Source: an uncultured Bacilli bacterium (GTDB lineage Bacteria; Bacillota_I; Bacilli_A; RF39; UBA660). Taken from it: a DNA stretch of 64,000 nt. Of the stretch, positions 14,500-46,586 are shown one piece after another. The translations under genes and the position numbers were made by a program. Positions within the stretch are counted from its first letter, which is position 1; each line of letters starts with the position of its first letter. Below the pieces are notes generated by a model. The model was not told the DNA's origin. It saw nothing but the letters and a program-made list of their open reading frames with translations, and did no database searches. The stretch lies in NCBI GenBank assembly GCA_947626565.1, contig CANQSQ010000002.1:1003-65002 (forward strand). Direction: 5' to 3'.

Positions 14500-14751
14500 T
14501 TGCGAGACAAAACTAGTTTATTCAGTGTACAAGAATTAGATACTAAAGTGGTTAGAGATGCTCTAACGGAAGCTTTTGATGCTTTAGAAGAAAGAGGTTA
14601 TAATCCAACTAATCAAATAGTTGGTTACTTAATTAGTGGTGATCCAGGTTATATATCTAGTTATAAGGATGCTAGAAATAAGATTCAAGAAGTGGATCGA
14701 GCTAAGATAGTAGAAATTTTATTAACAGAATTTCATAAAAATAATAAATGA
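14500..14751 (+). CDS. ireB: IreB/ReoM family regulatory phosphoprotein (UPF0297)
   Basis: ALEERGYNPTNQIVGYLISGDPGYISS; TTG start chosen after RBS gaggtga; precedes ruvX as in other Bacilli. Confidence 0.92.
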   Translation: MRDKTSLFSVQELDTKVVRDALTEAFDALEERGYNPTNQIVGYLISGDPGYISSYKDARNKIQEVDRAKIVEILLTEFHKNNK

Positions 14752-15170
14752 AATATTTAGGTCTTGATTTAGGTAGTAAAACGTTAGGTATGGCATTAAG
14801 TGATAGCAGTGGTATTATTGCCAGTAGTTATAAGATAATTAGACATAATGAGGAATATGAACGTTTACTAAATGAAGTTGTTGGTGAGGTAGAAAAATTA
14901 GGTATTGAGGCCATTGTCCTTGGCTTTCCTAAGAATATGAATAATACCATAGGTCCTAAAGGTGAACTTAGTTTAGATTTTAAGGATAAGCTAGAAAAAA
15001 GATTGGAAATACCTATTTTTTTGCAAGATGAAAGACTTAGTACTGTTAGTGCAACTAATGTTTTGATTGATGGTGGAGTTTCACGTAAAAGAAGAAAAAA
15101 GGTTGTCGATAGTTTGGCAGCTACTATAATATTACAAACATACTTAGATAGAAAGGATAAAGAAAAATGA
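14748..15170 (+). CDS. ruvX: RuvX/YqgF family nuclease
   Basis: LGLDLGSKTLG, DERLST, VDSLAATIILQ. Confidence 0.95.
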   Translation: MKYLGLDLGSKTLGMALSDSSGIIASSYKIIRHNEEYERLLNEVVGEVEKLGIEAIVLGFPKNMNNTIGPKGELSLDFKDKLEKRLEIPIFLQDERLSTVSATNVLIDGGVSRKRRKKVVDSLAATIILQTYLDRKDKEK

Positions 15171-15460
15171 AAAAAAATACTTTTTCAATGTTAGATGAAA
15201 ATGGAAATGAAATAGTTTATGATGTATTATTTACATTTGAAAATGAGGAGACAAATAAAAACTATATAGTTTATACAGATAATAGTAAGGATGAACAAGG
15301 AAATATTCAAGTTTTTGCTTCAATATATGATCCAAATGATCCTAAGAGTAGATTAGAACCAATTCAATCAGATAAAGAATGGAAAGTTATTGAAACTATA
15401 CTAGAAACACTTCAAGAAGAAATTAGAAATAAAATGGGTAATGACACAAGTGAAAATTAA
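15167..15460 (+). CDS. DUF1292 family protein (YrzB-like)
   Basis: DENGNE..YDVLFTF, I.SDKEW..IE; conserved position after ruvX. Confidence 0.85.
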   Translation: MKKNTFSMLDENGNEIVYDVLFTFENEETNKNYIVYTDNSKDEQGNIQVFASIYDPNDPKSRLEPIQSDKEWKVIETILETLQEEIRNKMGNDTSEN

Positions 15461-15476
15461 TTTTGTGGGAGATTAG

Positions 15477-16553
15477 ATGGTAGTAAAAAAAAGGAAAGCA
15501 AAACCTTTATTATTTGTTTTAATTCTAATACTTGTAGCTATTTTAATGATTGGAATAGCTATATTTTGGATATATTCTACAAGTTGTGTAGATAAAAATG
15601 ATGATGCTAGTATAGAAGTAGTTATTGAAAAGGGGTATGGTTCAGCAAAAATTGCCCAAATTTTAAAAGAAAAGAATTTGATTAGGAATACATCTATTTT
15701 TAGACTATATGTTAAATTGTATAGTAAAAATACTTTGAAAGCTACGACTTATGAATTTAATAGAACAATGGATGTAAAAGAAATTGTAGAATCTTTAGAA
15801 GCTGGTAATAGTTATGATCCTGATCAATTATTAATAACTTTTAAAGAAGGACAAAGAATAACTGATTATGCAGAAATAATTGCGGAAAAAGTTAATAAAC
15901 CAGTAGATGAAGTTATTGCAGTATTTAATGATAAAGAATTAATTAAAGAACTAATAGGTAAATATTGGTTTTTAGAAGAAAAGATAGTTAGTGAGGATAT
16001 TTATTATCCTTTAGAGGGGTATTTGGCTCCGGATACTTATTTTTTTGCTAAAGATGTGACTGTTAAAGAAATAATTATGACCATGCTTGATGAGATGGAA
16101 GAAAAATTGAATAAATATAAAGATAAAATTAAAGATAATGTTCATGATTATGTGACAATGGCATCGATTGTAGAATTAGAAGGTACTAATCAAGAAAATA
16201 GAAAGATGATAGTTGGAATTTTTAATAATAGAATTGCTAATAAAATGAATTTAGGTAGTGATGTAACAACTTATTATGCTTTACAAAAACCAATGACGGG
16301 TGATTTATCTACTGCAGAATTTAGTACGATAAATCCTTATAATACAAGGGCGGCTAATATGGGTGGTAAGTTACCAGTAGGACCAATTTGTAATTTTGGT
16401 AAGGAAAGCTTAGAAGCTAGTGTTAATCCAACTAGTAGTGATTATTTATTCTTTGTCGCAGATAAAAAGGGAAATATTTATTATACGAAAACGAATAGTG
16501 AGCATCAGCAAAAAGTTGCTGAGATAAAAGAAAAAGGTGACTGGATATGGTAG
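15477..16553 (+). CDS. mltG: Endolytic transglycosylase MltG
   Basis: LEGYLAPDTY, MASIVELE, NPYNT, LPVGPICN, YLFFVA. Confidence 0.93.
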   Translation: MVVKKRKAKPLLFVLILILVAILMIGIAIFWIYSTSCVDKNDDASIEVVIEKGYGSAKIAQILKEKNLIRNTSIFRLYVKLYSKNTLKATTYEFNRTMDVKEIVESLEAGNSYDPDQLLITFKEGQRITDYAEIIAEKVNKPVDEVIAVFNDKELIKELIGKYWFLEEKIVSEDIYYPLEGYLAPDTYFFAKDVTVKEIIMTMLDEMEEKLNKYKDKIKDNVHDYVTMASIVELEGTNQENRKMIVGIFNNRIANKMNLGSDVTTYYALQKPMTGDLSTAEFSTINPYNTRAANMGGKLPVGPICNFGKESLEASVNPTSSDYLFFVADKKGNIYYTKTNSEHQQKVAEIKEKGDWIW

Positions 16554-17149
16554 ATAGTTTTGGGACTATCAAACAAATGAAGGAATATGCGGATAAGTAT
16601 AATGTGCCAATTATAACTGATGAAGGAATTGAGTATATAAAAGATTATATTGAGAAAAATGCAGTTAGAAAAATTTTAGAAATTGGTACAGCTATAGGAT
16701 ATTCAGCTATCATGATGGCTCTTTGTGATAGTGACATTGAAGTGACAACTATAGAAAGAGATGAGAAAAGATACTTAGAAGCTATTAAAAATGTAAAGAA
16801 ACTAAATTTGGAAAGAAGAATTAATTTAATATATAATGATGCTTTTCAAGTTAATTTAACAGATAAATATGATTTAATTTTTATAGATGCAGCCAAGGCA
16901 CAAAATACTAAGTTTTTTGAAAAGTTTGCTGCTAATTTGAGTGATAAGGGTGTTATAATTACGGATAATTTGAGTTTTCATGGCTTAGTAGCAAAGTCTG
17001 ATGATGAAATTGAGAGTAGAAACTTACGGGCATTGGTTAGAAAAATAAGAGATTATATTGCTTTTTTACAAAATAATAAGGACTATGAAACAGAATTTTT
17101 AGATATTGGAGATGGAATAGCTGTAAGTAGAAAAAAGAGTAGTGAGTAA
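16547..17149 (+). CDS. trmR: O-methyltransferase (TrmR/YrrM family)
   Basis: ILEIGTAIGYSA, DLIFIDAAK, GDGIAVS; synteny with mltG and the U32 peptidase genes. Confidence 0.85.
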   Translation: MVDSFGTIKQMKEYADKYNVPIITDEGIEYIKDYIEKNAVRKILEIGTAIGYSAIMMALCDSDIEVTTIERDEKRYLEAIKNVKKLNLERRINLIYNDAFQVNLTDKYDLIFIDAAKAQNTKFFEKFAANLSDKGVIITDNLSFHGLVAKSDDEIESRNLRALVRKIRDYIAFLQNNKDYETEFLDIGDGIAVSRKKSSE

Positions 17150-17164: not shown

Positions 17165-18100
17165 ATGAAATATTTGCAAATATTGGATTGCACTTCATCA
17201 TTGGGTAATTGTTGTATGGACTATGGGCTAGTTTCAATTATTGACATTACAAGGAAGATATTTGAATTAATACAATTATTTGTGCCAATAATTTTAGTAG
17301 TAATGCTTACGTTTCAATTTGGTAAGTTAGTTCTTAATCCAGAAGAGAAAAATGGAATGAAGAATGTTATTAATAAGTTAATAGCGGCAGTTGTTTGCTT
17401 TTTCTTACCAGTAATTTTAGATGCGGCTATGGGAATGTTACCTGATAGTTTTGTAGTTACTTCTTGTTGGGAGAATGCTAAAGTTATGAGGGAAGTATCA
17501 CTTAATACGCCTTTAAAATATATAAAAATAACGGATAGAGATCCATATAATATTTTACCTGATCCAGATGGTTATGAACAAGGTGAAGAACATAAGGCTG
17601 GTTCTGGTAGTTCGGGTCCAGCGGGGGTAGGTGCTCAAAGATTGCTTAGTGTGGCTATACCTGAGATTGGTAATAATGAAGGTGATAATAGTCATGCTAA
17701 ATATGAAACTTTTAATCACTTAGATTTATCGCAGCCATGGTGTGCAGCTTTTGTGACCTGGTGTGCAGGACAAGCGGGATTTTTAGATTCTGGTATTTTA
17801 CCTAGATATGTTGGTTGTTCAGCTGGAGCTTCATGGTTTAAATCTAGAGGACAATATTATTCTGAAGGTTCAGGTTATACACCGCAACCGGGAGATATCG
17901 TTTTTTATGGATCTGGCGGAGGATACTCACATACCGGAATAGTAGAGAGAGCTGATGCTGATTATGTTTATACTATAGAAGGAAATACCAGTTGTGAAGG
18001 AGAAGCTGTTAGTAAGTGTCATGGTGCTCACGGAGTATCTAGAAAGACAAGAAATCGTCATACTGGATATGTTTATGGTTATGGCAAACCTAATTATTAG
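17165..18100 (+). CDS. Pilin-like membrane hairpin fused to a CHAP amidase/peptidase domain
   Basis: N-terminal two-TM region aligns by eye with the 37685 pilin; C-terminal PWCAAFVTW, PQPGDIVF, SHTGIV, TIEGN. Confidence 0.85.
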   Translation: MKYLQILDCTSSLGNCCMDYGLVSIIDITRKIFELIQLFVPIILVVMLTFQFGKLVLNPEEKNGMKNVINKLIAAVVCFFLPVILDAAMGMLPDSFVVTSCWENAKVMREVSLNTPLKYIKITDRDPYNILPDPDGYEQGEEHKAGSGSSGPAGVGAQRLLSVAIPEIGNNEGDNSHAKYETFNHLDLSQPWCAAFVTWCAGQAGFLDSGILPRYVGCSAGASWFKSRGQYYSEGSGYTPQPGDIVFYGSGGGYSHTGIVERADADYVYTIEGNTSCEGEAVSKCHGAHGVSRKTRNRHTGYVYGYGKPNY

Positions 18101-18121: not shown

Positions 18122-18844
18122 ATGAAAAAGGTAATTAAAAAAAGAAATGACAAGGTTATTTTGCTAGTAGTTATTGTAGCGACATTTTTGTTTGTTTGTT
18201 TTAATGTTTATCATTACTTTAATACGTACAATAAAAATACAGGGTACAATAATATAAAAGAGGATACATCTAAATTAATTGTTTATACTAGATATACCCG
18301 AGATGTAAGCGATATTGTTACAATGGTTCCTTATATAAATTTAAAAACAGATATAATTGGGGATTTAAATAATCAAATTGCTGAGGTAGCGAATTCTTAT
18401 TTAGTTAATGAAGATAATGTCTTAACATATGAATATCAAATTAGTGGGGATATTTTATCAGTGGTTATGCAGATAAATTGTTATGATCAACCATTACCGG
18501 TAGTATATTTTAAAACTTATAATATAAACTTAAAAGAAAAAAGAATTTTAGAGGATGCCGATATTTTAAGTTTATTTAATATAACGGAAGCTGATGTTTC
18601 ACAAAAGATTGAAGAAAAATTCAAGACCTTTTTTAGAGAAGAAAGAGAAAAAAATATTTTTGATGAGGAATGTGATTATACTTGCTTTTTAGGTTATCGA
18701 AATATTAGTAATTATTTAGACAATATTCATTATTATGTAGATAATGCTCAATTATATGTCTATAAAGAATTTAATATTTATTCTATATATGATGAGGAAG
18801 ATTATTTTAAAAATACAGATTATAAAATGGCAATAACAGAATAA
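18122..18844 (+). CDS. Membrane-anchored hypothetical protein (RsiV/PdaC-like fold suspected), paralogue 1
   Basis: Single N-terminal TM; VPYINLKT, FKTYNINLK, ECDYTCF, YVYKEF shared with the next gene. Confidence 0.7.
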   Translation: MKKVIKKRNDKVILLVVIVATFLFVCFNVYHYFNTYNKNTGYNNIKEDTSKLIVYTRYTRDVSDIVTMVPYINLKTDIIGDLNNQIAEVANSYLVNEDNVLTYEYQISGDILSVVMQINCYDQPLPVVYFKTYNINLKEKRILEDADILSLFNITEADVSQKIEEKFKTFFREEREKNIFDEECDYTCFLGYRNISNYLDNIHYYVDNAQLYVYKEFNIYSIYDEEDYFKNTDYKMAITE

Positions 18845-18860: not shown

Positions 18861-19631
18861 ATGTTAATGGTAGATAATAAGAAAATGAAAAAAGAACAAA
18901 GACCTACTAAAGGAAATAAAAAAACAACATTTGATGTTAAATATGTACCATTTATAATAACTATGATAGTAATTATAATAGGTTTGTTTGTGGGATATAA
19001 TCTTTTTAGACCGAAAGAGCTTAATTATAAAAAATATATGATAGATAATTCTAAGGATTTAGTTTATACTAACATAGATAAAAGTTATGGTGATTATGTT
19101 AAGAATGTTCCTTATATAAATTTAAATACAGATGCAATTAGTGCTTTAAATGAAGAAATAGAATTGTTTGTAGCAGATTATTTAGATAAAGCTCAATGTG
19201 TTATTTATTATGATTATGATATAAATGATGGTGTAATCTTATCATTAATGATTAGGATTATTGATTATGCAGAAGATAATGGACCAATAAATTATTTTAA
19301 GACGATAAATATTGATTTAAAGACTTTGAATGAAATGGAAGATATTGATATGTTGACAGCTTTCAAAGTTACAGAAAAGGACATTCAGAAAAAAATAGAA
19401 GAGAAATTTAAAGATTATTTTTGGGATTTAGTAATTGATAATAAAATTGATTCAGCTTCATGTGATTTTGAATGTTTTGTGGGAAGAAGAGGGTTCTTAG
19501 GATATATGAGTGATGTCAATTATTACGTTAAAGATAAAAAATTAGTAGTTTATAAACCTTTTTTGATTGCTACTTCCCAAGAAGAATATGATTATTTTGT
19601 AGATAATGAATTTGTATTTGAAATAACATAA
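18861..19631 (+). CDS. Membrane-anchored hypothetical protein, paralogue 2
   Basis: Single TM; VPYINLNT, FKTINIDLK, SCDFECF, VVYKPF. Confidence 0.7.
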   Translation: MLMVDNKKMKKEQRPTKGNKKTTFDVKYVPFIITMIVIIIGLFVGYNLFRPKELNYKKYMIDNSKDLVYTNIDKSYGDYVKNVPYINLNTDAISALNEEIELFVADYLDKAQCVIYYDYDINDGVILSLMIRIIDYAEDNGPINYFKTINIDLKTLNEMEDIDMLTAFKVTEKDIQKKIEEKFKDYFWDLVIDNKIDSASCDFECFVGRRGFLGYMSDVNYYVKDKKLVVYKPFLIATSQEEYDYFVDNEFVFEIT

Positions 19632-19632
19632 A

Positions 19633-19738: not shown

Positions 19739-20605
19739 ATGAAGTTAGTTGTCGAATATAATGATGTATTAAAAGAAGAAAAAGTTGAAGCTGATGGGAT
19801 AATTGTAGGTTTAAAAGATTTTGCGGTATCTAGTAAAAGGACTTATTCTTTAGAAGAAATAAAAGATATTACGAAGAAATTTGGAGATAAAGAGATATTT
19901 GTAAGTATTAATAAAAATCTTTTTAATGATGAGATTGATGCGTTAAAAGAAATATTAAAAGAGCTAGATAAGTTAAAACTACAAGGAATTATGTTTTATG
20001 ACTTAGCTTTATTGAAATTAAAAAAAGACTTGCATTTGCAAGTAGACTTAGTTTGGAATCAGACACATATGGTAAATAATTATATGACTTGTAATTATTA
20101 TTATGACAAAGGAGTAAAATATGCTATACTAGGAAAAGAAATAACTTTGGCAGAAATAATAGAAATTATTAAACTTAGTAAAATAAAATGTATGGTTGAA
20201 GTGGTAGGTAAGGCTTGTATTGCTTTTTCGAAGAGAAAATTATTAACTAATTATTATAAGGATTTAGATAAAAGGTCTAAAAAGAATTTAGATATTTTAG
20301 AAAAGGTATCTAATACGATGTATGAAGTTGTAGAAGAGACGGCAGGAACTAGTTTTTATCAGAAAGAAATTATGAATGGTTGCGGTGTAATTAAAGAGTT
20401 ATGGGAAAATAATTGTAGTTATATTATTTTTAGAGAGAATGGGTTAGAAGAAATTTTTGAAGAATTAATTAAAGATACTATTACTTATATAAGGAATAAT
20501 TGCCAAGATGAAGCATATGTAAATAAATATAAGGTGTTGGGTGAAAATACTAATTTTTTCTTTAAGAAGACAATCTATAAGGTGAAGAAGAATGAAAAAG
20601 ATTGA
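19739..20605 (+). CDS. U32 family peptidase, YrrN-like (tRNA hydroxylation partner subunit)
   Basis: GIMFYD, LVWNQTH, AILGKEITL, FSKRKLL; overlaps the next U32 gene. Confidence 0.8.
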   Translation: MKLVVEYNDVLKEEKVEADGIIVGLKDFAVSSKRTYSLEEIKDITKKFGDKEIFVSINKNLFNDEIDALKEILKELDKLKLQGIMFYDLALLKLKKDLHLQVDLVWNQTHMVNNYMTCNYYYDKGVKYAILGKEITLAEIIEIIKLSKIKCMVEVVGKACIAFSKRKLLTNYYKDLDKRSKKNLDILEKVSNTMYEVVEETAGTSFYQKEIMNGCGVIKELWENNCSYIIFRENGLEEIFEELIKDTITYIRNNCQDEAYVNKYKVLGENTNFFFKKTIYKVKKNEKD

Positions 20606-21776
20606 GTTATTAGCTCCAGCAGGAGATTTGGAGAGATTAAAAGTTAATTTATTATATGGAGCCGATAGTGTTTATATTGGTGGAGAAAAGTTTAGTTTAA
20701 GAGCTAATGCTACTAATTTTTCGTTAGAAGAAATTAAAGAGGGATGTTGTTTTGCTCATAAGCTGCAAAAAAAGGTTTTTTTAACATTAAATATAGTCTT
20801 TCATAATGAAGATATGGAAGGAGTATTTTCATATATTGATCAAGTTGTAGAAGCTGGAATAGATGCCTTTATTGTAAGTGATCCTTTTATTATTTCTTAT
20901 ATTAAGAAAAAGCATAAGAAGGTGGAAGTACATTTATCAACCCAAAATTCAACAAGTAATTATGAAGCAGTTAATTATTTTAAAGAAGAAGGCGTTGATC
21001 GGGTTGTTTTGGCTCGGGAATTAGGAAAAGAGCAAATAAAGGAAATTATTGAAAAAACCAAGTTAGATGTGGAAGTATTTATTCATGGGGCTATGTGTAC
21101 TTGTTTTAGTGGAAGATGTGCATTATCTAATTATGTGACAAATAGAGATGCTAATAGAGGTGGTTGTAGTCAAGTCTGTCGCTTTGCTTTTAAAACAGAT
21201 GAAGAAAAGGATTTTACATTAGCTACAAAAGATTTGAATATGGCACGTTATATTAAAGATTTAATTAATATGGGAGTGGTATCATTAAAAGTAGAAGGGA
21301 GAATGAGATCTTTATATTATTTAGCAACGGTTATTGGTACTTATAGAGAAATAATTGATCGAATATATGATAATACTTTGACAGAAGATATTATGCAAGT
21401 ACTGGAAGAGAGATTGAATAGAGTTGCTAATAGAGAGGTATCGAGTCATTTCTTTCTAAAAGAAGCTGATTGGACTGATCAGTATTATACAGGTAGAGTA
21501 GAAGTATCTAATCAGGATTTTTTAGGATTAATTACAGGGTATGATGAAGAAAATAAATGTTTAATATTAGTAGAAAGAAATTATTTTGAGCCAGGTGATG
21601 AAGTAGAAATATTTACGCCTGATTTAAAAATTTATTCTTATAAAATAGAAAAAATTTATGATGAGAAGATGCAAGAATTAGAAGTAGCAAGACATCCGGA
21701 GCAAGTATTAAAATTGAAGTTTCCTAAAAAGTTGGCTCAGTATTCGATGATTAGATTAATAAAAAAAGGAAAATAG
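20592..21776 (+). CDS. U32 family peptidase, YrrO/TrhP-like tRNA hydroxylation protein
   Basis: ELLAPAG, HGAMCTCFSGRC, NRGGCSQVCR, SLKVEGRMRS. Confidence 0.92.
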   Translation: MKKIELLAPAGDLERLKVNLLYGADSVYIGGEKFSLRANATNFSLEEIKEGCCFAHKLQKKVFLTLNIVFHNEDMEGVFSYIDQVVEAGIDAFIVSDPFIISYIKKKHKKVEVHLSTQNSTSNYEAVNYFKEEGVDRVVLARELGKEQIKEIIEKTKLDVEVFIHGAMCTCFSGRCALSNYVTNRDANRGGCSQVCRFAFKTDEEKDFTLATKDLNMARYIKDLINMGVVSLKVEGRMRSLYYLATVIGTYREIIDRIYDNTLTEDIMQVLEERLNRVANREVSSHFFLKEADWTDQYYTGRVEVSNQDFLGLITGYDEENKCLILVERNYFEPGDEVEIFTPDLKIYSYKIEKIYDEKMQELEVARHPEQVLKLKFPKKLAQYSMIRLIKKGK

Positions 21777-31659: not shown

Positions 31660-32475
31660 ATGGGAAATTTAGGACAAAGTATTAAAAAATTTGCGCAAAA
31701 CAAAAATACTGTTACTGTGGTTGGTGTTATATTAGCAATTGTTGTTTTATATGTAGCATATAATATGCGTGTAAAATCAGCAATTAATCCTATTAATGTG
31801 CCTTATGCTTTAAAGCAGATTAACCCAGGAGAGCAAATAACAGAGGATATGGTGGGAGTTAAACAAATACCACCTTCAATGATTGATGGAGCTGATGTTT
31901 ATACTAATCAAGGTGATGTTATTGATAAATATTCTGCAGCTGATTCAGTTATACCTGAAGGTAGTTTATTCTATGAAAGAGCAGTAGTTGAAAAAGAACA
32001 ATTGCCTGCTAATATTATTCTTGATTATCCTAAAGGATACGTTTTATATAATTTAGCCGTTGATTCTACTTCAACATATGGTAACTCAGTATATCCAGGA
32101 AACTATATTGATATTTATCTAAAAGCAGTAAATAAGGTAACAGATGAAACACAATTAAAAGAAGACGATAATAAGATTATGTTAGGTAAATTAATTTCTA
32201 ATATTAAAGTATTAGCAGTTAAAGATGCTTCTGGACAACCTGTATTTGCAAATATGGATGAGCAAAGAACACCTGCTATGGTAGTATTTGCAGTACCAGA
32301 AGAATACTACATCTTATTAAAGAAAGCTGAATATTTAAGAACTTATGATTCAACATTAATTTTAGTTCCTACTAATGAAAGTTTGAAAGATGAACCTGAT
32401 GATTTGGAAATTAGTAGTGAAATGTTAAAAGATTGGATTAATAGAGTTACTTATTGGGATGAAAATTACGAATAA
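31660..32475 (+). CDS. cpaB: Flp pilus assembly protein CpaB/RcpC-like (SAF domain)
   Basis: TM, then VPYALKQINPGEQITEDMV (SAF), GNSVYPGNYIDIY, NIKVLAV. Confidence 0.8.
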   Translation: MGNLGQSIKKFAQNKNTVTVVGVILAIVVLYVAYNMRVKSAINPINVPYALKQINPGEQITEDMVGVKQIPPSMIDGADVYTNQGDVIDKYSAADSVIPEGSLFYERAVVEKEQLPANIILDYPKGYVLYNLAVDSTSTYGNSVYPGNYIDIYLKAVNKVTDETQLKEDDNKIMLGKLISNIKVLAVKDASGQPVFANMDEQRTPAMVVFAVPEEYYILLKKAEYLRTYDSTLILVPTNESLKDEPDDLEISSEMLKDWINRVTYWDENYE

Positions 32476-32495
32476 AAGAATAAAGGGTGAGTATA

Positions 32496-34154
32496 ATGAA
32501 CGAAAATATATTTGATAAGTTAGATTTTGGACCATTGAGATCATTATTGGATAATGATGATGTTACAGATATTTCGTATGATAATAATGGTCAGATATGG
32601 ATACGTTCACTTACTCAAGGTTCAATGAGAGTAGAAGTTGAAGGGGCAACTCCAGAGTTTATAGAAAAGTTAGCTTTTCAATGTTCTAATGTTATGGGAA
32701 CAACTTTCAATAATGCTAAACCTTTTCTAGATGCTGAATCTGCTGAGTTGCGTCTTAACTTTGTACATCAGTCAATTGCTACAAATGGAATTGCACTAGT
32801 TATACGTAAAACACCAGCTAAGATTAGATTGGAAAAATCTAAATTAATTCAAGAAGATTATTTTACTAATGATATTCATGATTTTTTAATAAAATGTGTT
32901 GAAGGTCACTGTAATATCATGGTAGCTGGAGAAACTGGTTCTGGTAAAACAGAATTTGTAAAATATCTAGCTAGTCATACTAAAACGAATGAAAAAATTA
33001 TTACAATTGAAGATACATTAGAGCTTCACTTGGATAAGATTTTTCCACAAAGAGATATTGTAGCGATGAAGACTAATAATGTAGCTAGTTACTCAGATGT
33101 ATTAGTTACATGTATGCGTCAAAATCCAAAATGGATTTTGTTATCAGAGGTTCGTAGTGCTGAAGCTGTTTCAGCAGTAAGAAACTCAATTTCTTCAGGA
33201 CATAATATTTTGTCAACAATCCATGCTGATAAAGCATCAGCTATTCCATATCGTTTATATTCTTTAATGGAAACGGATTTGGATGTAAACCAATTTTTGA
33301 GTACGATTTATCGTTATATTCAATTAGGAGTTCATATAAAGGCTTTTTATAGTAAAGAATATGGTAAATTTCACCGTGAGTTGGATGAAGTGTGTGAGTT
33401 TTATGTTGATGAAAATAATGTCCCACAAGCTAAAGTTATTTATCAAAAATTATTTGGTAAACCTGTAATGATTAAACCTAGTGACCATTTGATAGAGTAT
33501 TTGGAAAATCAAAATATTGAAGTTCAAGACATTGTATCAAAGTTACCTTTAGAAATGCCATTTAAGGAAAATGGGAATGAAATGGACTTGAGTAAGTTTG
33601 ATTTGGATGATGGTACTTCTGATAATGGTTCTGTTAGTGATAAAAATGATGATGGTACAACAGCTGAGGAACAAAAGAGTAGTCCAGTAGAAGATGATAA
33701 AAATAGTAGTCAAGATTCTGTAGAAAAAGAGGTTGAAACTACACCGGTTACTCCAGTAGCAAGTACTGAGACAGTTGCAAGTACACCTCCAGTAGTTAAT
33801 ACTGAGGTAAGTGCTGTTACTACTCCAGTAGCGGGTGCTGATGCAAGTAATGAGGTAAGTGCTGCTCCTCCAGTAGCTAATACTGAAACAGTTGCAAGTA
33901 CACCTCCAGTAGTTAATACTGAGGTAAGTGATGTTACTACTCCAGTAGCGGGTGTTGATGTAGGTAATGAGGTAAGTGCTGCTCCTCCAGTAGCTAATAC
34001 TGGGACAGGCACAAGTATACCAGTAGTTAGTACTGATGCAAGTGCTACTGCTCCGGTTACTAGTACTGATGTTGTTGCACCAGGGACAGTTGTAGCGAAT
34101 AGTACTAATAATCAAATACAAGTACCACTTACTAAACTAGATCTTGATGAATAG
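32496..34154 (+). CDS. cpaF: Tad pilus ATPase CpaF/TadA with low-complexity C-terminal extension
   Basis: GPLRSLLDNDDVTDI, IRK, Walker A GETGSGKT, IEDTLEL, SEVRS, GH...STIHA; ATG chosen after gggtga (GTG at 32487 is the alternative). Confidence 0.9.
   Translation: MNENIFDKLDFGPLRSLLDNDDVTDISYDNNGQIWIRSLTQGSMRVEVEGATPEFIEKLAFQCSNVMGTTFNNAKPFLDAESAELRLNFVHQSIATNGIALVIRKTPAKIRLEKSKLIQEDYFTNDIHDFLIKCVEGHCNIMVAGETGSGKTEFVKYLASHTKTNEKIITIEDTLELHLDKIFPQRDIVAMKTNNVASYSDVLVTCMRQNPKWILLSEVRSAEAVSAVRNSISSGHNILSTIHADKASAIPYRLYSLMETDLDVNQFLSTIYRYIQLGVHIKAFYSKEYGKFHRELDEVCEFYVDENNVPQAKVIYQKLFGKPVMIKPSDHLIEYLENQNIEVQDIVSKLPLEMPFKENGNEMDLSKFDLDDGTSDNGSVSDKNDDGTTAEEQKSSPVEDDKNSSQDSVEKEVETTPVTPVASTETVASTPPVVNTEVSAVTTPVAGADASNEVSAAPPVANTETVASTPPVVNTEVSDVTTPVAGVDVGNEVSAAPPVANTGTGTSIPVVSTDASATAPVTSTDVVAPGTVVANSTNNQIQVPLTKLDLDE
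33742..34080 (+). repeat. 117-bp tandem repeat (Pro/Val/Thr-rich) in the TadA tail
   Basis: ctccagtagc..atactg at 33751, 33868 and 33985; unit TETVASTPPVVNTEVSxVTTPVAGxDxxNEVSAAPPVAN. Confidence 0.9.
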
Positions 34155-34168
34155 AAAGGAGTAAACCT

Positions 34169-35071
34169 ATGTATATAGAAGAGTTATTATTTATAATACT
34201 AGTCGTTTTAGGAATCTTTTTATACAGAAATTATAAGGGAGAAAATGTAGGCAAGTATGTATTAAATCAAGTTCAAGGTGTTTATGATAAGTTTGCTCCA
34301 TATTCTTTTAAAATGGTTCGTGAAAAGACTAAAGAGTTAGGTCAGGAATATACTCCTAGACAGTATATGATTCAGATTCTTGTTATTTCTGGTTTTACAG
34401 CTGTAGTTACGTATTTGTATTTTTATAATTTAGTTATATCAATTGTATATGTACTTGTTTCAATGATGTTTGTTCCATACTTATCATATTTAAGATGTAA
34501 GAGAATTTATAGTGAGTTTTTATTTGAACAAATACAAGTTTATACATCCAATGTTATTATGGAATTTGCTACGACACAATCATTTGTTAAGGCACTTGAA
34601 GGAGTTAAAAATTCAGGAGTACTTGAAGATCCAGTACTTAGTGATGTTGATCAAATGATTAGTATGTCTTATAGTAATGGTACTATTGATGAAGCTCTAA
34701 ATTATATGAGTAAATTATATCCATATTATATAGTTAAAAATATGCACCAATTATTTTTACAAATTACTAAAGAGGGTGCAAGAGATTCTTCAGAATCGTT
34801 GGAAAATATGCAACAAGATATCGATATGTTAGTTGAAAGTGTATATCGTGATAGAATTGAAAGAGCATCTTTCCATAAGTCTTTTTTACAATTTGGTGTC
34901 ATGCTGTATTTGATGGTTATGTTAGTTCAATACTTATTAGGTAGAGAGACATATTTAGTTTTGTTGGATAGATGGTATGTTTCAGGACTTTTACATGGAG
35001 TATTGATAGTTAATACTTACTTCCTATTAAAAGGTGAAAAATACTATAATGAGAATGTAGGTGCAGAGTAA
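34169..35071 (+). CDS. tadB: TadB-like pilus platform membrane protein
   Basis: Follows TadA; TM pair, helical T2SSF-like region (SFVKALE...GTIDEAL), C-terminal TM pair. Confidence 0.7.
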   Translation: MYIEELLFIILVVLGIFLYRNYKGENVGKYVLNQVQGVYDKFAPYSFKMVREKTKELGQEYTPRQYMIQILVISGFTAVVTYLYFYNLVISIVYVLVSMMFVPYLSYLRCKRIYSEFLFEQIQVYTSNVIMEFATTQSFVKALEGVKNSGVLEDPVLSDVDQMISMSYSNGTIDEALNYMSKLYPYYIVKNMHQLFLQITKEGARDSSESLENMQQDIDMLVESVYRDRIERASFHKSFLQFGVMLYLMVMLVQYLLGRETYLVLLDRWYVSGLLHGVLIVNTYFLLKGEKYYNENVGAE

Positions 35072-35880
35072 TGGAGATAGTAATTGTAGGAGCAATTATC
35101 TTATTTGTATTAGTATATAATCATACTATTGATAAAGATAAGTTTTTTGCTGATAATCAAAAATATTTGGAAGTAGTAAGAGAAGAAGATTATACTTTTC
35201 TTGTATATGCAAGATATGGTGAAGATGTTGATGCTGATGCTTTGTACATGAAAAGAATTACATATGCAGCTATTGTCTTCTTTATTGTTTTAGCTTTTAC
35301 TATTAGTTCAGCTGATACAGCTGAAATTATAAATTCACAGTTTTTCTTAAATTTGGTGTTTGCATCAGTTGTAGCCGTGTTAGTATTTAAGATGCCATAT
35401 ACACAATTAAAACAATATTATAAAGCACATTTGCATGAAATTGATATTATGTTGCCATACTATTTAAAGAGTTTGGAAATATTAATTCAACATTATACGG
35501 TTCCAGTTGCGATTGGTAAATCGATAGAAGATGCACCAGAAATATTTAAACCAGGATTAAGAAAGATGATTGATCGAATTAATTCAGGTGATGCATCAGT
35601 TGATCCTTATATGGAATTTGCTAATACTTATCCAGTTAGAGATTCAATGCGAATGATGAGACTTTTATATCGTCTAGGAATTGGTTCTCAAGAAGGAAAA
35701 CAAGAAAGACTTATGATGTTTGCTAGAACAGTTTCTTCATTACAAAATAAAGCAAGAGAAACTAAATATAAAGAAAGACTTAATCACATGGAAAGTCAAA
35801 CAATGGTAATGCTTGTTGTTACAGGTATTGGTGTTATGCTTATAATATTAATTTCTATGATGATGATGTTTAGTATGTAA
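35071..35880 (+). CDS. tadC: TadC-like pilus platform membrane protein
   Basis: IDIMLPYYLKSLEIL...VPVAI T2SSF-like segment; coupled to tadB (TAATG). Confidence 0.7.
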   Translation: MEIVIVGAIILFVLVYNHTIDKDKFFADNQKYLEVVREEDYTFLVYARYGEDVDADALYMKRITYAAIVFFIVLAFTISSADTAEIINSQFFLNLVFASVVAVLVFKMPYTQLKQYYKAHLHEIDIMLPYYLKSLEILIQHYTVPVAIGKSIEDAPEIFKPGLRKMIDRINSGDASVDPYMEFANTYPVRDSMRMMRLLYRLGIGSQEGKQERLMMFARTVSSLQNKARETKYKERLNHMESQTMVMLVVTGIGVMLIILISMMMMFSM

Positions 35881-37633: not shown

Positions 37634-37662
37634 TTGACAAATTTATAATATAATATTATAAT
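37634..37662 (+). promoter_or_regulatory. Perfect consensus SigA promoter for the VirB2-like pilin
   Basis: TTGACA (37634-39), 17 bp, TATAAT (37657-62). Confidence 0.85.
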
Positions 37663-37684
37663 GTTAAATGAAGGAGAGGTAGTT

Positions 37685-37999
37685 ATGGCAAATACAGATT
37701 CTTGTGGTGGATTATTACCATTAGTAAAGGTTGTAAGAAAAGGTGTTTTTCCGTTAGTACAAATATTTATTCCAATTGCTTTAATTATATATGGTACTAT
37801 CGATTTAGGTAAGGCTGTTATTGTAAGCGATGAAAAAGAGGTTAAGGCAGCACAAAGCAGATTAATTAAACGTATTATTTATGCTGTATTGATTTTCTTT
37901 GTAGTAGTTATAGTTTCTGCTGTTATGAATATCGTTGCAACAGGTGGAGAAGGAGATACTTCTGGATGGCAAGCTTGTTGGTCAGCAGCCGCTAATTAG
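37685..37999 (+). CDS. VirB2/TrbC-like T4SS pilin
   Basis: RBS aaggagagg, ATG 37685; two hydrophobic helices around KAVIVSDEKEVKAAQSRLIKR. Confidence 0.75.
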   Translation: MANTDSCGGLLPLVKVVRKGVFPLVQIFIPIALIIYGTIDLGKAVIVSDEKEVKAAQSRLIKRIIYAVLIFFVVVIVSAVMNIVATGGEGDTSGWQACWSAAAN

Positions 38000-38091: not shown

Positions 38092-38601
38092 ATGAGAAAA
38101 ATATTAGTTTCTTTTGTACTAGTATTAAGTATTTTTACTATTAGTCCAAATAAGACAGTTGCTTTTGCTAAAGAAAAAATTAATGAGAATTCATTAGTTG
38201 ATTTTGGCGTTGTTCAAAACAATTATTTATATATATTAGATAAAGATAGTGATGAAGAAGTTAATATTGATGATTGGTTAGATGATTATAATCAAGAACA
38301 AAATTGTGATGCAGATAGTTCTTTATTAGGAAATCCTAATGATCCTGATTCTGTTGCTTGGTTATTACAGCAAGTATTAAATTATATTAGAATATTAGGA
38401 CCAATACTAGTAATTGTTTTAAGTAGTATTGAATTTGCGAAAGTTATTGTTACAAGTGATGATGAATCTATGGGAAAAGCTAGAAAAAAGCTTATTAATA
38501 GATTAATTTTAATTGTGGCTTTATTCTTTATACCAACACTTGTATCATTTTTATTAGGTATTTTTGGTATAACTACTGATCCTACTTGTGGACTTCAATG
38601 A
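38092..38601 (+). CDS. Second VirB2/TrbC-like pilin with signal peptide and acidic linker
   Basis: Signal (..TVAFA), then ILGPILVIVLSSIEFAKVIVTSDDESMGKARKKLINR..ALFFIP. Confidence 0.72.
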   Translation: MRKILVSFVLVLSIFTISPNKTVAFAKEKINENSLVDFGVVQNNYLYILDKDSDEEVNIDDWLDDYNQEQNCDADSSLLGNPNDPDSVAWLLQQVLNYIRILGPILVIVLSSIEFAKVIVTSDDESMGKARKKLINRLILIVALFFIPTLVSFLLGIFGITTDPTCGLQ

Positions 38602-38618: not shown

Positions 38619-40772
38619 ATGACAGATACTTATGCCGCTAATACAATGAATGACATGTTTAGAAATATTTCGGCTGTATTATTTGATAAAACATCTTATT
38701 GGCTTTTAGGTTTGTTATATCAGATATTTTTTAATGTGGCATCAGCAGATTTATTTAATAATGCAACGATATTAGGTTTTTATAAAAGAGTGCAACTTAT
38801 AATTGGAGTATTTATGATATTCCAGTTGGCTGTTACTATTATGAGGGGAATTTTGAATCCTGATCAATTACTAGATAATAAATCAGGAGTAAGTTCATTT
38901 ATAACAAGAGTTGTTATGGCTTTAGTTTTGTTGACTGTTTTAGTACCTATTAATATTCCAGGAGCAACTAATGAGTATGAAAGACAACTTAATAATAATG
39001 GTTTATTATTTGGTACACTTTATTCGTTACAAAATAGAATTTTGTCGAATAATACTTTGGGACGGTTGATTTTAGGTACGACTGATGGGGCTATTACAAG
39101 TGATGCGGATGATGATGGTAGTACGGGTCTTACGGGGGCAGATAAGCAAGCTGCTAGTTTGGAAAAGTCTTCTAAAATATTTACATCTACTATTTTAAAG
39201 GGATTTGTTAGGATTAATTTAGTGCCTGAAGAGTATCGTAAAGATCCAGGTGAGGGTAAGACTGAAGAAATGCTTAATGAGAATAGAATTTGTAAGGATA
39301 TCGATGATGCCATTTTGGAGTCTTATACTAGAGTTGATGCTGATGTTGATGAAATTTTAAGTAATATTACAGCTGATTGTGCTTTAGATACGGATGCTGA
39401 ATGGGTAAAAAGTGATTTAGAGCAAACTAAGAGTAGTTTTTTGACAAAGTTATTTGGTAAAAAAAGGTATATGTTTGCTTATAGACCAATAATATCAGCA
39501 ATAGTGGCAATTATCTTTTGTTTTGTATTATTAAGTTTTACCATTGAGATTGCTGTTCGTGCTGTTAAATTAGCAGTACTTCGTTTGATTGCTCCGGTTC
39601 CAATAATTAGTTATATGGATCCTAAAGGTAGTAAAGATGGAGCATTTAATTCTTGGGTTAAGACTTTAACTTCAACATATTTAGATTTATTTATTCGTTT
39701 GGCAGTAATTTATTTTGTTATATATTTGATTCAAGATATGATAGTTAATGGTATTGTAATGAATACTGGTACGGGTATGATTGGTGTTTTGTCAGCTATA
39801 ATTATTTGGATTGGTTTATTTATGTTTGCTAGAGAAGCACCTAAGTTTATTCGTCAAGTTCTTGGTATGAAAGAAGATGCTGGCAGAGGTTTATTCAGTG
39901 GTATTGGTACAGCATTAGGAATGGGTGCAGCTGCTGCTGGAATGGTAGGTTCTGCTTTAACTAATTATAAAGCTTCTAAAGAGGAAAATGAACAATTACA
40001 TGCTGGACAGACTAAAAGAAATATTGCAAGAAATGTTGGCTCAGCTATTACTGGTGCTATATCTGGTGGATTTACTGGTGCTAGAGCAGCTTTGACTGCT
40101 AAGGATCATGCTCTTAAGAGCTCAATTGATGCTATGCAGAAACGTAATGCTATAAGAGCATCTCATTCAACTGCCTTGGGTAGACTTACTAGTTCAGGTT
40201 ATGGATTATTAACTGGTAATTCTTTGGCTAGTAGGGATCAAAATATTTTAGATGCTAATAAAAATGCGGCTAAATCTATTGGTGAATTTAAATCAATGGC
40301 TGAAGCACAGGCAAAGAAAAATGGAGAGTTCGGTACATATAAAAACTTTAATTATAATTATGAAGGTTTAATGGCTGCGATGAATGCTAAAGATAGTAAT
40401 GGTAATTTCCAATATACTGATGCTCATACGAAGCAAACTAGGACCTTTAATGTTAGAGATTTTGATAACAATGTACTTTCAAGTATATTGGATTCACAAA
40501 CAGCAAATTATTTAGCAAGTAATTTTCATAATGGTGCTTTCAATGATGGAAAGCTTCAAGACAAATGGGCTTATGCTAAACATGATATGATTGAAGCAAA
40601 TATTGATTTTGGAAGCACGTATTTAGGAGCTGATACTACAGGTATTGGACTTGAGCAGGCTTATAAGACTATAGGTGCTACTATTGGAGAGGCAAATGCC
40701 AAAGCAAGAGAAAAAGCTACTAATATGGAAGGTATTATGCATAGAGCTAATGAGCAACAAAATAAAAAATAA
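38619..40772 (+). CDS. VirB6/TrbL-like polytopic T4SS membrane protein
   Basis: IAVRAVKLAVLRLIAPVPIISY, FNSWVK, FAREAPKFI and a Gly/Ala-rich tail typical of VirB6/TrbL-like proteins. Confidence 0.75.
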   Translation: MTDTYAANTMNDMFRNISAVLFDKTSYWLLGLLYQIFFNVASADLFNNATILGFYKRVQLIIGVFMIFQLAVTIMRGILNPDQLLDNKSGVSSFITRVVMALVLLTVLVPINIPGATNEYERQLNNNGLLFGTLYSLQNRILSNNTLGRLILGTTDGAITSDADDDGSTGLTGADKQAASLEKSSKIFTSTILKGFVRINLVPEEYRKDPGEGKTEEMLNENRICKDIDDAILESYTRVDADVDEILSNITADCALDTDAEWVKSDLEQTKSSFLTKLFGKKRYMFAYRPIISAIVAIIFCFVLLSFTIEIAVRAVKLAVLRLIAPVPIISYMDPKGSKDGAFNSWVKTLTSTYLDLFIRLAVIYFVIYLIQDMIVNGIVMNTGTGMIGVLSAIIIWIGLFMFAREAPKFIRQVLGMKEDAGRGLFSGIGTALGMGAAAAGMVGSALTNYKASKEENEQLHAGQTKRNIARNVGSAITGAISGGFTGARAALTAKDHALKSSIDAMQKRNAIRASHSTALGRLTSSGYGLLTGNSLASRDQNILDANKNAAKSIGEFKSMAEAQAKKNGEFGTYKNFNYNYEGLMAAMNAKDSNGNFQYTDAHTKQTRTFNVRDFDNNVLSSILDSQTANYLASNFHNGAFNDGKLQDKWAYAKHDMIEANIDFGSTYLGADTTGIGLEQAYKTIGATIGEANAKAREKATNMEGIMHRANEQQNKK

Positions 40773-40791
40773 ATTAGGGAGTGTGATATAA

Positions 40792-41103
40792 GTGAATTAT
40801 TTAATCCCTGCTAATACTAAGAAGGGGCAACTAATTTTAGGAATATTTAGAAAGTCTGATTTAATATTATTTGCGGTTGGGGTCTTAATAACAGTTATAT
40901 TGTTAGCTGTTATGCCTCTTACTTCAACTTTTGTGACAATAATGATAATGTGTCCAGCTTTTATCGCTGGATTTCTAGTAATGCCAGTTCCCTATTATCA
41001 TAATATGTTAAACATAATAGTAGAAATGTATGAGTTTTTAACTAATAGACAAACTTATAGATGGAAAGGTTGGTGCTATAAAAATGTCCAAAAAGGTAAG
41101 TAG
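40792..41103 (+). CDS. PrgI/VirB3-like small membrane protein
   Basis: YLIPAN...ILGIF, two TMs, TYRW; typical position upstream of VirB4. Confidence 0.65.
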   Translation: MNYLIPANTKKGQLILGIFRKSDLILFAVGVLITVILLAVMPLTSTFVTIMIMCPAFIAGFLVMPVPYYHNMLNIIVEMYEFLTNRQTYRWKGWCYKNVQKGK

Positions 41104-41632
41104 TGGTTTTACTGAAGATTGGTTACCAGTAAAAGCTATTCAAAATAATATGATTATAACAACAGATAATTATAAAGTAAGTGGTGTTAAAATTACGCCA
41201 AGAAATATTTTTATACTTGATATAGATACGCAAAATAATATTTTGATTAGTCTTAGAAATTTTTATAATATGATAGATTTTGAGTTTTGGTTAGTAGTAG
41301 CTGATAGACCAGTTGATATTTCAATTTATATGTCACAAATGCAGTTATTATTAAACGAGACAAATTCACCAGCTGTTAGAAAGTTAATAATGCAAGATAT
41401 TGAAAAAGGTGAAACATTTATAAGAAATAATGTTGTTGATACAGAATATTATTTCTTATTTAAAACAAAGAATGTCGATGAAGTTCAAAAAAGAGTAAGA
41501 ATGATGATAAATGGGTTAGCACAGTGTGGTTTAAATGCTTCCCAAATTAGTAATTCTGATTTAAGACTAGTACTTGAAAATTTCTTAAATGGAGGAACAT
41601 CAACAGAATTTGGGACGGTGATGCCAGTATGA
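41084..41632 (+). CDS. T4SS accessory protein (soluble, between PrgI-like and VirB4)
   Basis: TEDWLPVKAI..., VKITPRNIFIL; overlaps both neighbours. Confidence 0.6.
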   Translation: MSKKVSSGFTEDWLPVKAIQNNMIITTDNYKVSGVKITPRNIFILDIDTQNNILISLRNFYNMIDFEFWLVVADRPVDISIYMSQMQLLLNETNSPAVRKLIMQDIEKGETFIRNNVVDTEYYFLFKTKNVDEVQKRVRMMINGLAQCGLNASQISNSDLRLVLENFLNGGTSTEFGTVMPV

Positions 41633-43419: not shown

Positions 43420-43448
43420 AAAAAGAAAACAGAAGTAGGTGATGTATT

Positions 43449-45794: not shown

Positions 45795-45803
45795 GGAGGA
45801 ATT

Positions 45804-46586
45804 ATGAGAGGCAAAAAAATATATGTAGCTATAATAATCATATTACTAATTTACCTTGGCATATTATACTTTGCTTGGGGAAAGGATAATGTTAAAGAAG
45901 GTCAGAACGCTACGACAATGCTAGTTGGAGATAATACTATATGGGTTTATTCTGATAGAAAATGGCTTAATATAACAAAAGAAACAACAATAGATAAGTT
46001 AAATTGGCAAAAGTTTAATATATTTGTTGATAATAAAAGCATGGGAGAAAAATACGTGTGGCATGATGATAAATGGTATTTGTTTGATGAAAAGAAAAAT
46101 GCTGTTATGTTTACTGGTAAATTGTTTGCTTTTAAGTCTAATTTTGATATTTCAATTATGGATTATAAAGAAGAAGAAATTGATGATTATAAATATATAA
46201 ATCAAGTATTAGTAGATAATAATTTAAGTAAGACGTCGGAGTTTACAGTACAGACAATGACTAATCTTGATATTGATAATGATGGTAGTGATGAAAGATT
46301 TTATGTAATTAGTAATGCCTTTGCGATTGATTTTACACCTAGTATGTTATTTTCTATTGTTTTTATGGTTAAAAATGACAAAATATATTATATTTATAAT
46401 GATATTAGTTACAATAATGCTAATTACAATGAATGTAAACCATATTTTAACTACTTTATAGATTTAAATGAAGATAATGTTTATGAAGTCGTTTTAAGTT
46501 GTGGAAAATATAGTGTTGAAGAGGAAGTAAATATGTTATATGAATTTAAAAATGATGAATTTAAATTGCTTATTAGTAATCAATAA
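45804..46586 (+). CDS. Membrane-anchored hypothetical protein with DxDxDG-like loops
   Basis: N-terminal TM; DIDNDGSDE and DLNEDNVYE motifs. Confidence 0.7.
   Translation: MRGKKIYVAIIIILLIYLGILYFAWGKDNVKEGQNATTMLVGDNTIWVYSDRKWLNITKETTIDKLNWQKFNIFVDNKSMGEKYVWHDDKWYLFDEKKNAVMFTGKLFAFKSNFDISIMDYKEEEIDDYKYINQVLVDNNLSKTSEFTVQTMTNLDIDNDGSDERFYVISNAFAIDFTPSMLFSIVFMVKNDKIYYIYNDISYNNANYNECKPYFNYFIDLNEDNVYEVVLSCGKYSVEEEVNMLYEFKNDEFKLLISNQ

Follow-up and report, generated by a model that had tools for sequence, protein, structure and literature searches.

Why does a peptidoglycan hydrolase carry a pilin at its N-terminus, and why is it encoded amidst housekeeping genes? This question is raised by the gene at positions 17165-18100 of the DNA analyzed here, 64,000 nucleotides from contig CANQSQ010000002.1 of an uncultured Bacilli bacterium (GenBank assembly GCA_947626565.1; GTDB lineage RF39, UBA660), in the following referred to as the window. 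The protein comprises a module resembling the pilins of type IV secretion systems (T4SS), a linker and a CHAP domain, and a T4SS locus with two related free pilins is encoded in the same window. Our tentative answer, to which we would give a probability of about 45%, is that a modular pilin of the VirB2 type brings the wall hydrolase to the T4SS, while it would be held in check by a partner protein.

Architecture of the fusion protein

The gene and its parts are:

17165..18100, + strand: fusion gene, 311 residues, with pilin-like hairpin, linker and CHAP domain (open reading frame, Shine-Dalgarno sequence, Pfam, alignment of 30 homologs, AlphaFold2 (AF2) model)
17165..17497, + strand: pilin-like module, residues 1-111 (PF18895, BLASTP against the free pilins, alignment of 40 modules, AF2)
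17498..17614, + strand: linker, residues 112-150 (motif DP.GYE.GEE common to three paralogs, Gly/Ser run)
17615..18097, + strand: CHAP peptidoglycan amidase/endopeptidase domain, residues 151-311 (PF05257, alignment, AF2, Foldseek)

Translation starts at the ATG at 17165, seven bases downstream of AAGGTGA, and the stop lies at 18100. The enzyme part is clear-cut. PF05257 matches residues 189-274 (E 1.2e-15, 58.2 bits; cut-off 26), and C193, H256, E272 and N274 are invariant across 30 aligned homologs. The first-pass annotation, made by eye, had described a Gly/Ser linker followed by a CHAP domain with intact Cys, His and Glu, and this description stands. In the AF2 model, which was built on the 30 homologs, the CHAP domain reaches a predicted local distance difference test score (pLDDT) of about 90. 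A Foldseek search with the whole model is dominated by this domain rather than by the pilin module: CHAP endolysins rank at the top, namely PlyPy (5udn, E 2.6e-4), Ly7917, PlyGRCS and LysK CHAPK, with template modeling (TM) scores that are modest because the query was the whole protein. Given its intact catalytic residues, the fusion is predicted to act as a peptidoglycan hydrolase.

The module consists of a short, presumably outer tail with Cys17, a helix (20-57), a loop (58-63, NPEEKN), a second helix (64-91) and a third (97-113) that contains Cys101-Trp. Its helices were modeled at pLDDT 64-79, the linker as disordered (pLDDT under 50). Two hydrophobic helices with a short charged loop between them, as in this module, are characteristic of the small proteins of PF18895; owing to its appended enzyme, the fusion is larger. 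By eye, no signal peptide is visible at the N-terminus. A lipoprotein or Sec signal was considered for this end and rejected upon the same inspection, as no hydrophobic stretch precedes residue 20 and Asp precedes Cys9. Both ends of the module are likely to lie outside the membrane, since this is where the CHAP domain has to be and since the conserved Cys residues flank the hairpin, one before helix 1 and one just after helix 2.

Homology of the N-terminal module to pilins

Two free pilins are encoded at the T4SS locus:

37661..37999, + strand: free pilin type 1, 112 residues, with the Cys...Cys-Trp signature of the fusion
38092..38601, + strand: free pilin type 2, 169 residues, with signal peptide, N-terminal extension and C-terminal pilin module (PF18895 26.8 bits)

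BLASTP aligned the fusion with the type 1 pilin at E 3e-9 (34% over 58 residues) and with the type 2 pilin at E 1e-8. A hidden Markov model (HMM) derived from the five modules of this genome retrieved these five from 3191 open reading frames at E 7.6e-45 to 1.1e-31, while the next best frame scored 0.017. This clean separation, together with the BLASTP results, confirms the resemblance to the standalone pilin that had first been noticed by eye, and the distance of about 20 kb between fusion and pilin genes is as claimed then. Furthermore, the type 1 pilin ends just past the common Cys-Trp, where the linkers of the fusions begin. With the Pfam model PF18895 (T4SS_pilin), the complete fusion is matched over residues 27-86 (E 2.9e-5, 24.5 bits, under the cut-off of 26.6), and residues 1-112 alone score 27.0 bits, just over it. 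An alignment of 40 modules from the window genome and its relatives has P41 and C101 in every sequence and C17, F79 and P82 in nearly every one; 25 of the 40 match PF18895 at E<=0.01.

Paralogs and size of the family

A Pfam search of the window genome revealed three fusions, which combine the module with a CHAP, an SGNH-like and a C39-like domain, respectively. All have an N-terminal Cys, Cys-Trp after helix 2 and the linker motif in common. The SGNH-like fusion (302 residues, contig C28) shows a weak GDSL/SGNH match besides its module (PF18895 32.5 bits; TrbC PF04956 E 0.029), and the C39-like one (332 residues, contig C7) carries Peptidase_C39_2 at E 6.4e-8. The former has two NAGPA phosphodiester-glycosidase genes on one side and a GNAT acetyltransferase gene on the other (L001, G000:C28:7893-11072); the same neighbors are present in the relatives L101 and L102, giving a hint toward an action on wall glycopolymers. 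In the relatives, 42 module proteins were found by Pfam to carry CHAP, NlpC/P60, C39_2, Amidase_3 (weak), GDSL/SGNH, Big_2 plus YkuD, or Peptidase_S11.

An exhaustive search of 1.84 billion representatives with the module profile yielded 9258 representative clusters at E<=0.001, 2837 of them at E<=1e-10. We read the best 149 of the 9258. Many short representatives among them end within linker-like sequence, which suggests that these are cut genes, and 77 comprise at least 250 residues. Domains of wall-enzyme type are carried by 54 of these 77, mostly NlpC/P60. The 77 divide into NlpC/P60 (35), Peptidase_C39_2 (7), CHAP (3), Peptidase_M23 and Glucosaminidase (2 each), VanY, Amidase_3, YkuD and GDSL (1 each), ATLF and S9/DLH (1 each), a probably spurious membrane match (1), pilin alone (6) and no domain (15). 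The ATLF metalloprotease-like domain (E 3.5e-46) and the S9/DLH alpha/beta hydrolase behind the module belong to P0228 and P0236; an action on the wall is known for neither. About ten classes of wall enzymes have been grafted onto one pilin module, thousands of times. When the fusion itself was used as query, about 88 of the 120 clusters listed span nearly the whole protein and 15 have a precomputed PF18895 match; none of the whole-length clusters among these 120 bears a functional name (one is called 'hypothetical protein').

The architecture also occurs in reverse. At loci L109 (7205-8758, - strand) and L110 (6480-8039, - strand), proteins of 517-519 residues with a large N-terminal domain and a C-terminal pilin module are encoded beside TrbL, and the 169-residue pilin of the window is a short form of this arrangement. 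The N-terminal domain of these reversed fusions could be assigned to no family, apart from one weak WXG100-like match.

Outside the family to which the window genome belongs, the module was detected in 2 of 179 scored Bacilli genomes, as short open frames of 103-141 residues only. A tblastn search of 72,556 plasmids with the module and the 169-residue pilin gave no match at E<=0.01.

The secretion locus and its co-occurrence with the fusions

The fusion's free paralogs do adjoin TrbL and VirB4, within a locus that comprises:

31660..35880, + strand: Tad-like genes directly upstream of the T4SS, with RcpC/CpaB-like protein, CpaF-like ATPase and two membrane proteins (Pfam)
38619..49013, + strand: T4SS core, with TrbL/VirB6-like protein (38619), split VirB4, SpoIID+C39_2 hydrolase (43449) and VirD4 (46644) (Pfam, NCBIfam)

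The two membrane proteins of the Tad region match no family, and their TadB/C-like label is by position only. VirB4 is split into two overlapping frames, 41084-41632 (182 residues) and 41629-43419 (596 residues), which cover positions 100-277 and 295-891 of the NCBIfam model VirB4_plasma, and the same split is found in the relatives L109, L110 and L114. The closest named models belong to integrative and conjugative elements (ICEs) of Mycoplasma and to the CD1110/CD1115 families, all with scores below the models' cut-offs: VirB4 E 4.7e-107, TrbL-like E 1.2e-4, and the 169-residue pilin against NF045849 (Mbov_0395 pilin-like) E 7.6e-4. No relaxase family was found among the scanned open reading frames of the window by Pfam and NCBIfam, and no search of the whole genome for relaxases was made. 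Two surface proteins with DUF6273, a domain resembling targets of diversity-generating retroelements, flank the T4SS (25558-27354, 49029-50291; 52397-55801), and a sortase as well as Ig-like surface proteins are encoded at 25558-31147.

A VirB4 ortholog is present in 113 of 121 genomes of a sample of the order (64-90% identical). In a sample of the family, whose genomes range in size from 0.6 to 2.1 Mb, 379 of 401 have it at E<=1e-150 (64-95% identical). The Tad-like and T4SS genes are therefore a chromosomal core system of a whole family of small-genome Bacilli. In the order sample, 111 of 121 genomes gave a match to the module with a query of 135 residues, and the profile recovered it in all five VirB4-positive genomes that this query had missed.

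Of the 22 family genomes without core VirB4, 20 were listed and sorted. Core VirD4 is present in 12 of the 20 (G025, G085, G104, G322, G339, G340, G381, G400, G421, G437, G450 and G478). G376 and G301 were examined as possible cases of fusions without a T4SS and rejected, since contig ends cut the locus in both: TrbL lies at a contig end in G301, Tad genes and a pilin in G376. No T4SS marker was found in the remaining six (G069, G075, G092, G106, G369 and G453), not each of which was searched with every marker. G069, G092, G106 and G369 lack the module by profile, and G075 has reversed or free pilin forms only, beside RmuC. There (L112, G075:C9:30000-49000), reversed pilin genes of 420 and 438 residues and a 175-residue pilin lie between RmuC and U32 genes in a genome without VirB4 or VirD4; the site looks like a remnant or a remodeled locus. 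G092 has no T4SS genes after greA, and the Tad ATPase is missing in the three marker-less genomes tested for it (G092, G069 and G369). An outgroup from another family of the order (G001) has neither module nor T4SS. Since G092, G069 and G075 each have sister species within their genus that keep both module and T4SS, the losses of both features look independent, but they are few.

G453 stands apart. It encodes two intact N-terminal fusions with lipoprotein partners (L116, G453:C8:16000-30000), syntenic with its congener G005, and no VirB4, VirD4, TrbL or CpaF was found in its 20 contigs. It is the sole candidate counterexample to the link with the T4SS. As the assembly is 90% complete, it is possible that the 20-kb locus is merely missing. 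The first-pass annotation had named two observations that would speak against its interpretation, an N-terminus without profile or structural similarity to the pilins and fusions in genomes lacking the T4SS. Profile similarity is present, and no fusions were found in five of the six marker-less relatives, while G453, which has them, is too incomplete an assembly for a judgment.

Partner genes

Two paralogous genes follow the fusion directly:

18122..18844, + strand: partner gene, 240 residues, with N-terminal membrane helix and RsiV/DUF4163-DUF3298-like ectodomain (AF2, Foldseek)
18861..19631, + strand: second partner paralog, 256 residues, 37% identical to the first (alignment; family HMM E 2.1e-74)

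Neither partner matched a Pfam or an NCBIfam family (Pfam threshold for the first, E<=0.1). The AF2 model of the first (pLDDT 89) consists of one membrane helix (10-40) and an ectodomain, for which Foldseek listed 3cyg (E 5.3e-5) and the RsiV-lysozyme complex 5jen (E 6.3e-5 to 7.4e-5, TM 0.43-0.52), with the DUF3298 entries 3s5t and 4e72 lower down. According to the available part of the structural work on RsiV, lysozyme is inhibited 1:1 by this protein, which binds in the active-site cleft of the enzyme; the best structural match of RsiV itself is likewise 3CYG, and not every protein of this fold binds lysozyme (PMC5014341). Judged from the model, the partner has the same two-domain ectodomain fold as RsiV behind a single membrane helix, and it is the active site of a wall hydrolase that RsiV occupies and inhibits. 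In contrast to RsiV, the partner shows no Pfam match to DUF4163 or DUF3298, and its presumed ligand would be the cell's own cysteine peptidase instead of lysozyme. It also differs in lacking a sigma-binding domain: about 10-20 residues precede the membrane helix, which leaves no room for a cytoplasmic anti-sigma domain.

The partner family counts 28 members among 523 open reading frames from 39 sources, all of them beside fusions. In other genera (L093, L094 and L104-L106), the gene behind every fusion encodes a lipoprotein, about 210 residues long, with an L-x-x-C lipobox and conserved Cys pairs, and thus nearly every fusion has a small exported neighbor. A profile-profile comparison detected no relation between the RsiV-like family and these lipoproteins (probability 2%). 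On the basis of fold and position we infer that the partners may be binders or inhibitors of the fused enzymes. Complex prediction for residues 93-311 of the fusion with residues 45-240 of the partner gave a score of 0.00 in two runs, with the controls not folded, and speaks neither for nor against binding. The fusions and their neighbors also amount to a catalog in which wall hydrolases are paired with candidate protein inhibitors.

Genomic position and age of the cassette

Fusion and partners lie between housekeeping genes:

14748..17149, + strand: ruvX, DUF1292, mltG and yrrM-like O-methyltransferase, housekeeping genes on the same strand with gaps of few bases
19739..21776, + strand: two peptidase U32 genes, yrrN/yrrO-like (Pfam)

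Successive genes of the window at this site are 15-21 bases apart. Among species-representative genomes, 80 loci were kept, of which 68 match the fusion only from residue 119, i.e., in the CHAP part, and 12 over the full length. These 12 are labeled as uncultured Bacilli, uncultured Erysipelotrichaceae, unclassified or probably mislabeled metagenome-assembled genomes, and Clostridium sp. CAG:451. In all 12, yrzL-ruvX-DUF1292-mltG-yrrM precedes a fusion, behind which a homolog of the partner gene at 18122-18844 is encoded, with two or three fusions in tandem in seven of them. As the 12 loci were found via the fusion, they cannot tell how many genomes lack it. Four further loci from other genera (L092, L096, L103 and L108) have the fusion at the same site. 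In G092, a relative without the cassette, yrrM is followed directly by the two U32 genes (L089).

This conserved synteny implies that the cassette is old and inherited, and we rejected a recent mobile insertion on these grounds. The first-pass annotation had regarded the gene and the next two as an insertion into a housekeeping cluster, which suggests a recent local event; this part of its interpretation has to be given up, while the pilin homology, the intact CHAP domain and, through co-occurrence, the link to the T4SS were borne out. It had passed over the three fusions in this genome, the large family with its many enzyme types, the RsiV-like character of the next genes and the hydrolase inside the T4SS locus (43449-45794).

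Wall metabolism of the host

The window genome makes peptidoglycan, with five matches to penicillin-binding proteins (PBPs), four to Mur ligases and four to SEDS proteins (one of these a fragment). G074 has the same three groups, and so do the marker-less genomes G092, G069 and G075. A wall-less organism whose enzymes scavenge muropeptides was considered and dismissed in view of these proteins. The only CHAP domain of the window genome is that of the fusion at 17165-18100, and none of four marker-less genomes tested has one. Non-fused NlpC/P60 proteins occur in the window genome (G000), G092 and G075, so that the cells have a housekeeping endopeptidase that is independent of the fusions. Because of the missing CHAP domains and the separate NlpC/P60, the fusions look like an accessory set traveling with the T4SS and not like basic autolysins.

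Proposed role and alternatives

How might such a protein work? A two-helix hairpin of the PF18895 type would insert into the membrane with both ends outside, placing the flexible linker and the CHAP hydrolase on its outer face. As the free T4SS pilins consist of this same module, we propose that the T4SS would handle the fusion like a pilin. In this way the enzyme might arrive where the machine is assembled, or on a filament, should there be one, and might cut peptidoglycan where the machine crosses the wall, in the producer's own wall and probably also in that of a contacted cell. The two RsiV-like membrane proteins might block the enzyme by binding to it for as long as it resides in the membrane of the producer. 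Co-assembly of the fusion into a pilus is purely inferred.

Several observations weigh against this proposal. Neither a pilus nor a handling by the T4SS is in evidence. The gene does not lie beside VirB4 or VirB6 as expected for VirB2 but about 20 kb away, and its link to the T4SS is genome-level co-occurrence only. As both features are near-universal and the relatives are not independent, this co-occurrence rests on a handful of losses. In addition to G453, with its fusions and no T4SS marker found, three genomes of 80 contigs each (G322, G339 and G340) have core VirD4 and show no module. The PF18895 score of the fusion module is marginal, and its profile retrieved only chance matches to membrane proteins from the PDB sequences (G protein-coupled receptors, Sec61 gamma; best E 0.06). 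Since no terminator-like site was found within 14300-20000, the fusion is probably co-transcribed with housekeeping wall genes such as mltG. Some of the fused domains, namely Peptidase_S11, YkuD and VanY, are usually housekeeping enzymes, and the T4SS locus has a hydrolase of its own.

One might argue from the last points that the pilin-derived hairpin is a plain anchor, which tethers ordinary wall-remodeling enzymes outside the cell independently of the T4SS, with the partner as regulator of autolysis. The position in the ruvX-mltG-yrrM cluster with its probable co-transcription, classical housekeeping enzymes among the fused domains (NlpC/P60 besides the three just named), the wall synthesis of the organism and the fusions of G453 all fit. 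Yet five of the six marker-less genomes lack N-terminal fusions, while PBPs, Mur ligases and SEDS proteins are kept where tested (G092, G069 and G075). The accessory character of the fusions, with CHAP absent from the four marker-less genomes tested and NlpC/P60 present in separate, non-fused form, is our main argument against this view. Furthermore, ordinary signal peptides are used elsewhere, e.g., in the 169-residue pilin, and a special anchor needs a reason. We consider the anchor unlikely; even if it were true, what remained would be a family of wall enzymes tethered to the membrane, large and so far undescribed, although of modest interest. An effector-immunity system, in which the module serves as a trafficking domain, the enzymes as toxins against the walls of other bacteria, perhaps after release, and the neighbors as immunity proteins, appears rather improbable to us as well. 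It would account for the combination of one unchanging N-terminal module with a wide choice of enzymes at the C-terminus, including ATLF and S9/DLH, as in polymorphic toxins, for tandem arrays with up to 16 module matches in one genome of 1.2 Mb (G017), for the small exported neighbor, be it RsiV-like or a lipoprotein, and for one fusion facing two partner paralogs in the window, like a spare immunity gene. A tree of the modules also groups them by genome and not by enzyme type; we give it little weight because it is based on 108 columns and has no support values. However, a single partner family serves CHAP, NlpC/P60, C39_2 and Amidase_3-like fusions alike, unlike toxin-specific immunity proteins, and the cassette is syntenic and vertically inherited at a housekeeping site instead of showing the turnover or the islands expected of such systems. 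Identities of 42-73% of the CHAP fusion over 30 aligned homologs do not resemble an arms race either, and no release site is evident.

Two further scenarios follow. The enzyme could be a VirB1-like helper that opens the producer's own wall for the assembly of T4SS or Tad pilus and stays in the membrane, docked on VirB6/TrbL by its module. Gram-positive T4SSs need a membrane-anchored wall hydrolase such as PrgK or TcpG, and the co-occurrence with the T4SS would be explained as well as by the modular pilin that we prefer. We nevertheless regard this role as very unlikely, since the T4SS locus already encodes a SpoIID+C39_2 hydrolase and a single task explains neither three to sixteen fusions per genome nor about ten enzyme classes nor the inhibitor-like partners. 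This family of gut bacteria might also live attached to other bacteria like Patescibacteria, with enzyme-fused pilins in the pilus breaching the partner's wall while the neighboring proteins protect the producer. Cargo would then leave the cell as part of the filament, which to our knowledge has not been described as a delivery principle for any T4SS. We find this lifestyle doubtful; if true, it would place VirB2-like pilins inside a T4SS lineage of the Firmicutes. Taken together, the modular pilin remains our preferred reading.

Comparison with known systems

The wall hydrolases of Gram-positive conjugation, PrgK, TcpG, CwlT and TgaA, join an N-terminal anchor to CHAP, NlpC/P60, SLT or M23 domains and are needed for the T4SS. 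Each system has one such enzyme, whose gene belongs to the T4SS operon and whose anchor is simple and unrelated to pilins. The fusion described here, in contrast, lies outside the T4SS locus, has paralogs and partners, and coexists with a hydrolase of that locus. The X-Tfe/X-Tfi pairs of Xanthomonas consist of soluble T4SS effectors, whose C-terminal signal is read by VirD4, and lipoprotein immunity proteins. They resemble the present system in that wall-degrading enzymes are tied to a T4SS and each has a small exported neighbor gene, whereas the constant part is here an N-terminal, pilin-type membrane hairpin. For the T4SS of the window, the genes of Mycoplasma ICEs (Mbov_0395 pilin-like, Mbov_0396 and Mbov_0397 VirB4_plasma) provide the closest named models, and NCBIfam holds a 'pilin-like' model for these elements. 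However, the locus in question is conserved in the chromosomes of a whole family instead of being a mobile element, and its VirB4 is encoded in two open reading frames.

With respect to the pilins themselves, the Patescibacteria are most similar. VirB2-like pilins of PF18895 and pilin arrays are described for their T4SS in the accessible part of one study (PMC12102498), and they are presented as the one exception among Gram-positive T4SSs, which otherwise lack VirB2, in the portions available of a 2025 review (PMC12857230) and of that study (PMC12102498). A walled family of Bacilli with PF18895 pilins in a core conserved T4SS runs contrary to the view expressed there. Both groups are monoderms with small genomes, several divergent pilin paralogs per genome, small two-helix proteins of the same Pfam family beside VirB4/VirB6 and a chromosomal T4SS without a match to a relaxase family. 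The host in our case is, however, a walled member of the class Bacilli, and its module carries enzyme domains, none of which are mentioned for patescibacterial pilins in the available parts of these papers (PMC12102498, PMC12857230). We found no paper on the fusion of a wall hydrolase to a pilin of the VirB2 type in a literature search that left supplementary tables, e.g., those of the Patescibacteria paper, aside. What is added here is the family of Bacilli, the catalog of fused enzymes, the RsiV-like partner and the analysis of co-occurrence. If the module routes enzymes to the machine or its filament, this would explain how a T4SS crosses thick walls and would give the 'pilin arrays' a testable function.

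A parallel in design comes from modular type IV pilins, for which more than 1,200 proteins in 264 architectures, one of them with a peptidase, are reported in the accessible part of the literature (PMC8179133). Like PilB of Streptococcus sanguinis, in which according to the same source an N-terminal pilin module and a linker serve to present a functional module on the filament (PMC8179133), the fusion combines pilin, linker and function in this order. Type IV pilins have a class III signal peptide, while the module described here is a VirB2-type hairpin of a T4SS and thus belongs to a different pilin superfamily and a different machine. Unlike in modular type IV pilins, nearly everything grafted onto the module is a wall enzyme, and incorporation into a filament is here only proposed. 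If the module indeed delivers its enzymes to the secretion machine or a filament, the principle of the 'modular pilin' would extend from type IV pilins to those of the conjugative type.

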